DNA of 24,274 nucleotides from Stx2-converting phage Stx2a F578, in sequence record LC487997. The stretch is one strand, 5' to 3'. Made by a program: the position numbers. Shown piece by piece: positions 9,001 to 12,000 of this stretch. The first letter of the stretch is position 1, and every line of letters begins with the position of its first letter.

Positions 9001-12000
9001 GTTTGCATTGTAAGACCACTCGTGATGGGGTTGGCCTGTGTAGTTTGTCGGAGCTAATCGCCTCCTGACTTTGCAGGTTTGCGCGACGAGCTCTACGGCG
9101 AGAAGCTGCGGTGCCTTTAAATTCTGTTTTTCTGGACATAGATTCCTCCCGAATAAACTTTGGCGATGCAATCTCGAAGCTCCTCCTGAGACGGTTGCTT
9201 CGGCATTGCATCCCACAGCTTATGTGGTTGGGTGATCTGGCTTTTCAGCCACGTAGTCGAGAGTCGACGTTGTTTAAAGAGCCTGCCAGTCTGTTCCATT
9301 TGGCTTCCAGCGTCCTGCTGATGGTTAAATAGTACGATATGTACTTCACTTGGTCAATACAATTTGTTCTAAAACGGGGCGTTTTTTTACAACGCTTTGT
9401 ATTTAATAGTATTGTTTTTTAGCGTGGGTGTATTGCCTCGGCGATGTAAGGAGAGATCAGAATTGCGTTGTTTAGTGAGTTGTATCTATTTATTTTCCAA
9501 TAAATACAATTGGTTATGTGTTTTTTTGGGCGAGAGGAAAAGAAAACCCGGCATGGAGGCCGGGTTGATGATTAGCGGTGTGGCCTTGAGCGATAATGCT
9601 CACACACATGTTCAAGATTTCCATGCCTTATCCGTTCATAGGCATTCACATGAACTTCTCGATCGAATTGGTCATTCAAATTGTATGTAGACATCTGTGT
9701 TTTCTCATATTGGCGGCAGCCCTACAACCGCTTGAAAAAATGTACCAGACGCGCTAAGGTTACATCGCAAATATTGTGTACCTTAACAAGGGCTCCTTTT
9801 GGAGGCTCTGGTTAAACAGCATCAATGTCGGACTGGGGAGTTGGACATTGTGCTGAATGCTTTTGCATTATTGAGGCCGAACGTAAACCTTCAGAATTGA
9901 AGAGATGCGTTCGGCTTCTTCGTTTGTGATATCGTTAGGAATGCCTTTAATCGTTACTGTAACCCCTGATTCAGGTCGAAGAACTACTGGAAGATCATAG
10001 GTATGAAGTGCATTAGCCTTGCCTTCGACTTTTGTTGGTTCGCCAGTCAAATCTTTTTCCTCACTGGATTCTTTGTCAATCGGAGTGTATGGGATTTCTT
10101 CACCAGACTGGAAAGCTACAAACTTTTTGATTGCACTTTCCATGCGGCTTTTATATGCAGTAATGCTGCTGTCGCTAGGCTTCGGCTCAGTTGCGTTGAT
10201 GTATCGCTCGGCAAGCTCATTCACATCAAGCTGAGTAACATCACCCATTTCCTCTTCTTGGACTACCGTTAAGAGGCGAGCGGATGAGTTTTTTAAATTT
10301 CGAGCGGTGGCCTCCTTCATTATGTTCAGCGACATAAGCTCTTCAAGGAAGTCCTTGAATGCCTGCACGCTAACGTTTGACTTTGCCATTTGCTCTCTCT
10401 CTAAGTTATTGACTCAGATCGAGTTTATCCAGGAATTGATTTGCATGCAAGACTCAAGTCTTGAGAATTTCCGTTCAAGATCCACTCTCAATAAAAAAGG
10501 CCGCACCTCTGCGACCTTTCATCTCCTAAATCTCTTTTCTCTTACCTAAAGAAACAGCAGGCTGGGTCAGCCCTAACAACTTCAAGTGCATCGGTCAGAG
10601 AAAGCTCCGTGCTATACAGGTGTTATTTCATATCTTTTTGCATCCAATAAATTTTCCATCTGTCCAGAGAGCGGATGCACTTGATTCTTGTTGATGGCAG
10701 GACGTTTTTTCACCTGCCTCACCCTGCCATACAGGACGCTGCTCACCGATATCTATCGTCCGGTCATTGATGTTATAGACAATATCCAGATCATTACGGA
10801 TATACTCAGATGGCCTTATGCTTTCAATGAATAGATGAACTTCTTTTTGACCGCTTGATACTCATGGCCATTAAACTCCATCTATCCTCTTTACCCAAAC
10901 GTCTCTTCAGGCCATTGGCTGGCGATAACTTTCCCCACAACGGAACAACTCTCATTGCATGGGATCATTGGATATTGCGGGTTTAGTGGTTGTAGAAACA
11001 CCTGACCGCTATCCCTGATCAGTTTCTTGAAGGTAAATTCATCACCACCAAGTCTGGCTATGCAGAAATCGCCGGGCTCAACAGCTTGCTCAGGGTCAAC
11101 CAGAATTAACATCCCGTCAGGAAAACTAGGTTTGGAACCTGTTGGTGCGGTCATTGAGTTACCTTCAACCTCAAGCCAGAATGCAGAGTCACTGGCTTTT
11201 TTGGTTGTGCTTACCAATCTCTCCGCATCACCTTTGGTAAAGGTTCTGAGTTCTGGAGAGAACATCCCAGCCTGAACATGAGAAAAAACAGGGTACTCAT
11301 ATTGTTTTTTAACTGGGGCCGATGAGTATTCGCCAACAGGTGAAAATGTCCCGTCGTGGTTGAATGATATGTTATCAATACCAAGGTATTTAAACACCAC
11401 ACCAATATCACTAAGAGATGGATGACGAGATCCGCGCAACCAGTGTCCAATTCCACCCTGCGTCATACCTAGCTCTTCGGCTAACTTCTCTTGAGTTATG
11501 CCGAGCTCTTTCATTCTGGATCTAGCCAGTTCATACCATTTCATTTTCATGTCCTTATTATTACGCTCTGTACTGGAACCATCCATGCACAATGTGTATT
11601 TTTACTTGTATTTGAGAAGTACATATTGTATTTTTTATTCGTGGTTACTATGGAGGGCATATGAGCAACCTACGAAAATATCGAGAGTCACTGAATATCT
11701 CTCAAACAACACTTGCTAAGGCAGTTGGATGCACACAGGGAGCTATCGGACATTGGGAATCTGGTCGTCGCTTCCCAGACCTTAAAACATGCCGTGCTCT
11801 TGTTGCGTGTCTAAACAAGTTAGGCGCAAAAGTAAGTCTTGATGACGTGTTCCCGCCGGAGCACAAAGCCGCTTAATAAGCGGAGCCGCTCTTTGTAACA
11901 ACGGACATTCGTCCTACGTCGCTGAAAAGCGAGTCCCAAGATATCTGACCAACTAAGGCCATATGCGTTTCCACGCATACCTTTCAACTAACTATTCACT

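Follow-up and report, generated by a model that had tools for sequence, protein, structure and literature searches.

A Shiga toxin phage repressor with a lambda-type C-terminal domain on a divergent DNA-binding head

The immunity region of the Stx2-converting phage Stx2a F578 (sequence record LC487997) was analysed in a stretch of 24,274 nucleotides, here called the window, which covers the early region of a Shiga toxin 2 (Stx2) prophage from int through stx2A. The genes cI (the repressor gene) and cro, at positions 10891-11876, are transcribed away from a short control region, and operators and promoters were placed there and left of cI (Table 1). The gene order N - orf22 - cI - cro - cII - O was the same as in related Stx phages.

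The cI product contained two Pfam domains, HTH_3 (E 1.9e-10; residues 10-57 of a 218-residue query) and Peptidase_S24 (PF00717; E 1.1e-28), and its full-length match to the solved lambda repressor structure 3bdn had an E value of 2.7e-96. The first-pass annotation, made from the sequence alone, had read the C-terminal half of this protein as lambda cI and the N-terminal domain as unrelated to lambda. When the two parts were aligned separately, the C-terminal part (tail) was 99% identical to lambda and the N-terminal part (head, residues 1-81) only 28%, over 53 residues. From Tyr82 onward, 135 of 136 residues (82-217) were identical without a gap to residues 101-236 of the mature lambda protein, encoded by codons 102-237 of the lambda gene, confirming the first half of that description; the sole difference from lambda was Trp to Leu at residue 110. 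The DNA of this module was 93.4% identical to lambda 37231-37637 over 407 nucleotides, again ungapped. Ala92-Gly93 and the residues Ser130/Lys173 aligned with A111-G112, S149 and K192 of lambda, and the near-complete identity of the domain suggests that cI undergoes RecA-stimulated autocleavage. With an N-terminal helix-turn-helix, Peptidase_S24, the Ser/Lys dyad and Ala-Gly all present, cI would belong among the LexA/cI-type self-cleaving repressors. The divergence of the head was upheld, but the word unrelated was too strong because both heads match HTH_3, a fold that they have in common as distant relatives; Q-x-G-[IV]-G is likewise present in both recognition helices.

The boundary between the two parts was mapped by a codon-by-codon comparison with lambda cI, running upstream from the stop codon. 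Differences amounted to 0-1 nucleotide per codon up to codon 82 (Tyr) and to 2-3 nucleotides in nearly every codon further upstream. Because of this jump, the putative recombination junction was placed at codon 81/82, within the hinge and ten residues ahead of Ala92-Gly93. The DNA homology stopped again at the stop codon, beyond which the two phages were unrelated, and no DNA similarity to lambda was detectable elsewhere in the cI-cro region, including 11302-11660.

Table 1. Coordinates of the features in the window, counted from its first nucleotide
Feature	Position	Strand	Description
int	55-1389		
N	8867-9211		left of cI; Pfam N_peptide, E 2.3e-32
pL-like promoter	9329-9357	minus	TTGACC-17-TACTAT, directed toward N; from promoter scan
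OL1	9330-9346		TAGTACGATATGTACTT; leave-one-out rank 3; overlaps pL -10
OL2	9355-9371		CAATACAATTTGTTCTA; leave-one-out rank 4; overlaps pL -35
OL3	9388-9404		TACAACGCTTTGTATTT; leave-one-out rank 7
cI	10891-11544	minus	217 residues plus stop; start ATG at 11544
Lambda-type cI module	10895-11301	minus	distal hinge, cleavage site, dyad, dimerisation/cooperativity domain
cI N-terminal DNA-binding domain	11302-11544	minus	residues 1-81; HTH_3; TQGGIGHW at residues 28-35
Control region between cI and cro	11545-11660		116 bp
pRM (putative)	11557-11585	minus	-35 TGGATG 11585-11580, 17-nt spacer, -10 AATAAT 11562-11557
OR3	11559-11575		TATTACGCTCTGTACTG; equals VT2-SA OR3; leave-one-out rank 10; over putative pRM -10
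OR2	11585-11601		ATGCACAATGTGTATTT; equals VT2-SA OR2; leave-one-out rank 7
pR (putative)	11601-11629	plus	-35 TTTACT 11601-11606, 17-nt spacer, -10 TATTGT 11624-11629
OR1	11617-11633		AAGTACATATTGTATTT; equals VT2-SA OR1; leave-one-out rank 1; over putative pR -10
cro	11661-11876	plus	71 residues; Pfam HTH_3, E 4.2e-12; annotated as cro in 1717, Nil2 and VT2-Sakai
cII activator gene	12018-12314	plus	downstream member of pR operon; Pfam Phage_CII, E 6.3e-32
O-type replication gene	12495-13316		after cII
stx2A	23043-24002		

The abrupt junction supports a reading of cI as a domain-level mosaic relative to lambda, and the domain-level recombination proposed in the first-pass annotation gained further support from the relatives of the two parts. 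An assembly or chimera artefact of the window as the origin of the junction has a negligible probability: many phage and chromosome records, each sequenced independently, contained the sequence at 100% identity, and no evidence supporting an artefact was found. Vertical descent from a lambda-like cI without any recombination, with a fast-diverging head and a tail frozen by constraint, would agree with a head that is still a homologous HTH_3 domain with some identity to that of lambda and a common recognition-helix motif. It would also agree with the substitution pattern of the tail, where 27 synonymous changes and 1 replacement separated the window from lambda (synonymous divergence, dS, 0.39; nonsynonymous divergence, dN, 0.003; dN/dS 0.008), a ratio that points to very strong purifying selection. 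However, one history would yield similar silent-site divergence on both sides of the junction, and directly upstream of a tail with a dS of about 0.39 the codons differed at 2-3 positions each and DNA homology was undetectable. The exact end of homology at the stop codon also speaks against vertical descent. Among the 120 best database relatives, proteins with heads 76-83% identical to that of the window had tails only 80-85% identical, compared with 99% for the lambda tail, showing that head and tail histories disagree. Vertical descent was thus considered very improbable. In P0029 and P0037, heads 75-78% identical to that of the window were joined to tails of 58-60% identity.

An exchange with phage lambda itself in the very recent past, amounting to a fresh immunity swap in this prophage, would account for a tail protein differing at a single residue. 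It is likewise very improbable. The 407 nucleotides of the tail held 27 silent differences, and the hybrid gene was found in different morphotypes, including the lambda-like phage 2B8, the P22-like Lederbergvirus 683R2 (near-identical) and many Stx phages. A patch of head plus right operator region (oR) was moreover carried by 776 complete Escherichia coli genomes. Given 27 silent changes against one replacement, the domain exchange is old and not recent. Tails of lambda type (at least 78% identity) were found on three head clusters less than 40% identical to one another, namely the family of the window cI, a family of 212-215 residues with HTH_19 heads, and the lambda family. The lambda-type tail is thus a module common to at least three head families, and it circulates among several immunity types.

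Six putative 17-bp operators were located, three in oR and three in the left operator region (oL). The OR1-3 sequences of VT2-SA used for comparison were those of Table S1 of PMC10742460, and all six sites were carried as putative operators in AP005153; OL1-OL3 fall outside 10891-11876, the interval covered by the first-pass annotation. An inverted-repeat finder with a 6-nucleotide seed returned no repeat in oR. As the operators are imperfect palindromes, half-sites were tabulated instead and a leave-one-out scan was run, in which a symmetric matrix built from five sites was used to rank the sixth among 24,258 window positions. The left-out sites ranked 1st to 10th, and the scan thus supported all six. 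The twelve half-sites gave the consensus a-A-R-T-A-C-A-a, with A5 and C6 invariant, and a full site AARTACAA-n-TTGTAYTT, in agreement with the earlier observation of a TACAA/TTGTA core in place of lambda operators. With one mismatch allowed, 5 of the 11 matches to TACANNNTGTA lay within the two short control regions, against an expectation of about 0.1. The pattern TACNNNNNGTA was weakly enriched in the window (7 against 2.46 expected). Between OR1 and OR2 (about 11604-11611) lies a compressed palindrome, TACTTGTA, which was not accepted as a seventh site because it misfits the 17-bp register and was absent from the top 20 matrix scores.

The lambda immunity type (imm-lambda), with the lambda head and TATCACCGC-type operators, was not found here, as the head was 28% identical, DNA homology across 11302-11660 was undetected and the operator consensus differed. 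Three 17-bp operators each at oR and oL, with divergent pRM and pR promoters, are known in lambda and predicted in the window, and the half-site positions A2, A5 and C6 are common to the two. By contrast, the half-site is TATCACCG in lambda and AARTACAA in the window, and the operator spacing and the fold class of Cro differ as well.

A rightward promoter was annotated in AP005153 at the position of the putative pR, and the putative pRM coincided with a site labelled there as 'putative maintenance promoter for CI'. The predicted start of pRM was near the ATG at 11550, and the layout of oR, with OR1 on the pR -10, OR3 on the pRM -10 and the centre of OR2 at about -43 of pRM, would be lambda-like. 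The longest cI open reading frame (ORF) spanned 10891-11592 on the minus strand. An AAGGA Shine-Dalgarno motif lay 7 nucleotides ahead of the ATG at 11544. This ATG, with which the annotated cI of 1717 and Nil2 also begins, is the most plausible start of cI; the second in-frame ATG, 11550, may start a leaderless pRM transcript. Longer annotated starts (231-233 residues; AP005153 and some database clusters) were rejected because the coding sequence would run through OR3 and OR2.

Several points weigh against this reading of the control regions. Window-wide, the 11 matches to the core pattern TACANNNTGTA were no significant enrichment over the 7.06 expected; only the clustering of the pattern in oL and oR was significant and informative. 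The centre-to-centre distances were 32 bp for OR1-OR2, 26 for OR2-OR3, 25 for OL1-OL2 and 33 for OL2-OL3, unlike the 24 and 23 of lambda, so that lambda-like pairwise cooperativity is only assumed. The putative pR matched 8 of 12 consensus positions and stayed under the threshold of the promoter scan, and the hexamers of the putative pRM were weak. Neither footprints nor direct binding measurements of this cI at its own operators were found. The published gel shifts used lambda CI and not the repressor described here; lambda CI bound the VT2-SA sites with an apparent dissociation constant of 3.7-6.4 uM, compared with 0.2-3 uM for its own sites (PMC10742460).

A rightward promoter-like sequence (TTTACA-18-TATTGT; 9386-9415, plus strand) was also observed over OL3, ahead of a small ORF designated B55 in AP005153; its hexamers resemble those of the putative pR (TTTACT-17-TATTGT).

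The first-pass annotation had also noticed that the recognition regions of cI and Cro are almost shared. This was borne out: TQGGIGHW in cI and TQGAIGHW in Cro (residues 25-32) were identical at 7 of 8 positions, and a BLASTP alignment of the cI head with Cro gave 22 identities over 62 residues (35%; E 9e-13). Cro matched only HTH_3, HTH_31, HTH_19 and HTH_92 in Pfam; no match to any Cro-named Pfam family was obtained, and Cro was not assigned to the lambda-Cro fold. Against the PDB, it matched the all-helical repressor heads of P22 C2 and 434, weakly (E 0.009 to 0.3). These results place Cro in the all-helical class paralogous to the repressor head, of the 434/P22 kind, and it is an HTH_3 paralogue of the cI head and not a protein of the lambda-Cro fold. 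In 434 and P22, Cro is paralogous to the repressor head, and a common operator set is read by both. The likeness is that Cro and the repressor head are in each case all-helical HTH_3 domains whose recognition helices closely resemble one another; the differences are the weak similarity of the P22 C2 and 434 heads to this Cro and the different operators.

The segment 10700-12400 (1701 nucleotides) was 100% identical to Stx2 phage 1717, WGPS4 and WGPS6. Identity was 99.9% with Nil2, 2851 and YYZ-2008, and 99.3% with the Morioka Stx1 and Stx2-II phages (AP005153, AP005154) and many PA phages; the segment also matched hundreds of E. coli chromosomes. Phages of the VT2-Sakai, 1717 and Nil2 type were 99.3-100% identical to the window in the DNA of cI, oR, cro and cII, with no difference within 10891-11876, and the window shares the cI head, Cro and operators of that immunity type. 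The cI and Cro proteins of 2B8 were identical to those of the window, and those of VT2-Sakai (NC_000902) were identical save one stop codon in the cI of that record. In 683R2, 78 of 81 head residues and 132 of 136 tail residues were the same. The first-pass annotation had named a uniform full-length match to a single known repressor as the result that would speak against a hybrid. Such matches were found in a trivial sense, at 100% to 1717, 2B8 and VT2-Sakai, and the mosaic reading stands. Of 5,426 complete E. coli genomes, 1,211 carried the tail patch, at 1,435 places in all, and 776, about one in seven, carried the head-plus-oR patch, at 802 places.

The stop codon in the RefSeq record of VT2-Sakai (NC_000902.1, locus 1503-2154) was in frame at Gln29, the first residue of the recognition helix (MT*GGIGHW), and because of it the annotation of that record splits the gene into a fragment and a truncated cI. 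Codon 29 was intact in AP000422.1 and in the window. Either a sequencing error or a clear-plaque or virulent mutation of the isolate that was sequenced could account for the stop.

Outside 10891-11876, phage 1717 differed from the window in its DnaB-type helicase. In the window, this replicative helicase gene (13313-15706, plus strand; 797 residues) was split by an intein of about 340 residues with a LAGLIDADG homing-endonuclease domain, as revealed by a DnaB_C match in two stretches and by LAGLIDADG_3 at residues 405-454. The gene of 1717 was 1377 nucleotides long and had no insert. TL-2011a and about 50 records of Stx2a phages carried the intein-bearing helicase at 99.2-99.6% identity.

Between cI and oL, at the position of lambda rexA/rexB, the window carried an unrelated ORF of 173 residues (9868-10389, minus strand), conserved as 'orf22 / VT2-Sap23' in VT2-Sakai, Nil2 and 1717. 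It had no Pfam match and may be an accessory or exclusion gene expressed from the prophage. A patch of 116 nucleotides (9451-9566) was 87.5% identical to lambda 35708-35826, which lies between oL3 and the end of rexB, and a terminator-like hairpin was present inside it on the minus strand (9566-9545). Despite different cargo genes, the immunity transcript seems to have a conserved end. Further to the right, a palindromic 11-mer, TACTTTAAGTA, occurred twice, 30 bp apart (19134-19144 and 19164-19174), in or near an ORF at 18904-19299.

The hybrid repressor and its immunity switch have already been published and annotated, and they are very common. According to PMC10742460 (2023), through which the work is cited here second-hand, Fattah et al. 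2000 described the CI proteins of VT2-Sa and lambda as highly homologous in the C-terminal part and little homologous in the N-terminal part, and tested the two phages for cross-immunity. In PMC8951638, the CI of Eru2/Eru3 Stx phages shares Clade I with lambda CI, the overall identity being 61%; by our own measure, 155 residues of the window cI were identical to lambda CI, or 65% of the length of the lambda protein. The epsilon34 repressor shows the same head/tail pattern, with a tail about 80% identical to that of lambda, and VT2-Sa and Nil2 have been named as relatives of its head (PMC2629481). Its proposed operator, WTACRAWWTGTAT (PMC2629481), resembles the consensus found here. The heads of epsilon34, L, ST64T and other Salmonella phages were about 50-55% identical to that of the window, a level at which a different specificity is expected from sequence.

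What the window adds is the precise junction at codon 81/82, an age estimate from silent sites and figures for frequency; it adds no other new biology. Laboratory lambda-P22 and 434-P22 hybrid repressors show the same exchangeability of head and tail. The natural repressor mosaics of 933W, HK022 and H-19B follow this principle as well, with the head setting operator specificity and the exchangeable tail providing oligomerisation and cleavage (PMC3202840), and mosaicism in Stx phages is reported to reach individual repressor domains (review PMC3202840). Both the natural mosaics and the laboratory hybrids differ from the window in their head and tail alleles. The 933W tail is reported to be non-cooperative (PMC3202840), whereas the tail here would be of the cooperative lambda type.

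Taken together, the region is very probably the lysis-lysogeny switch of the VT2-Sakai / 1717 / Nil2 immunity type, residing in an Stx2 prophage. The identities, the junction, the motif statistics and the genome counts were observed directly, whereas for cleavage, cooperativity, operator occupancy and promoter positions we draw on homology to lambda cI and on published work. Dimers of cI would bind the six pseudo-palindromic operators through the HTH_3 head, three at oR and three at oL, and would shut off pR and pL; when bound at OR2, cI probably stimulates the weak pRM. The C-terminal two thirds of the protein would provide lambda-type dimerisation, cooperative contacts and RecA-stimulated cleavage at Ala92-Gly93 by Ser130/Lys173. 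Because the tail is of the self-cleaving lambda type, SOS induction would be expected to derepress pR and pL and free the prophage, and Stx expression with it. By analogy with 434 and P22, Cro would read the same operators as cI and serve as repressor during lytic growth.

As the tail is 99% identical to that of lambda, it is conceivable, although unlikely, that cI forms mixed dimers or cooperative tetramers with co-resident repressors that have a lambda-type tail and a different head. Such repressors could reside together, because some complete E. coli genomes carried up to three lambda-type tails and the tail occurred at about 630 more places than the head. If formed, mixed dimers would have mismatched heads; both immunities could then be weaker, or the induction of one prophage could be tied to that of another. 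Mixed oligomers might then underlie the cross-immunity of VT2-Sa and lambda, the test of which PMC10742460 attributes to Fattah et al. 2000, and the type of tail would be a hidden factor in the compatibility of the several lambdoid prophages that enterohaemorrhagic E. coli strains carry.

For the Stx phages, the switch matters because it controls prophage induction, and hence the release of Shiga toxin, in a large group. Its repressor offers a clean natural case of domain shuffling, in which DNA specificity is separated from oligomerisation and SOS sensing.

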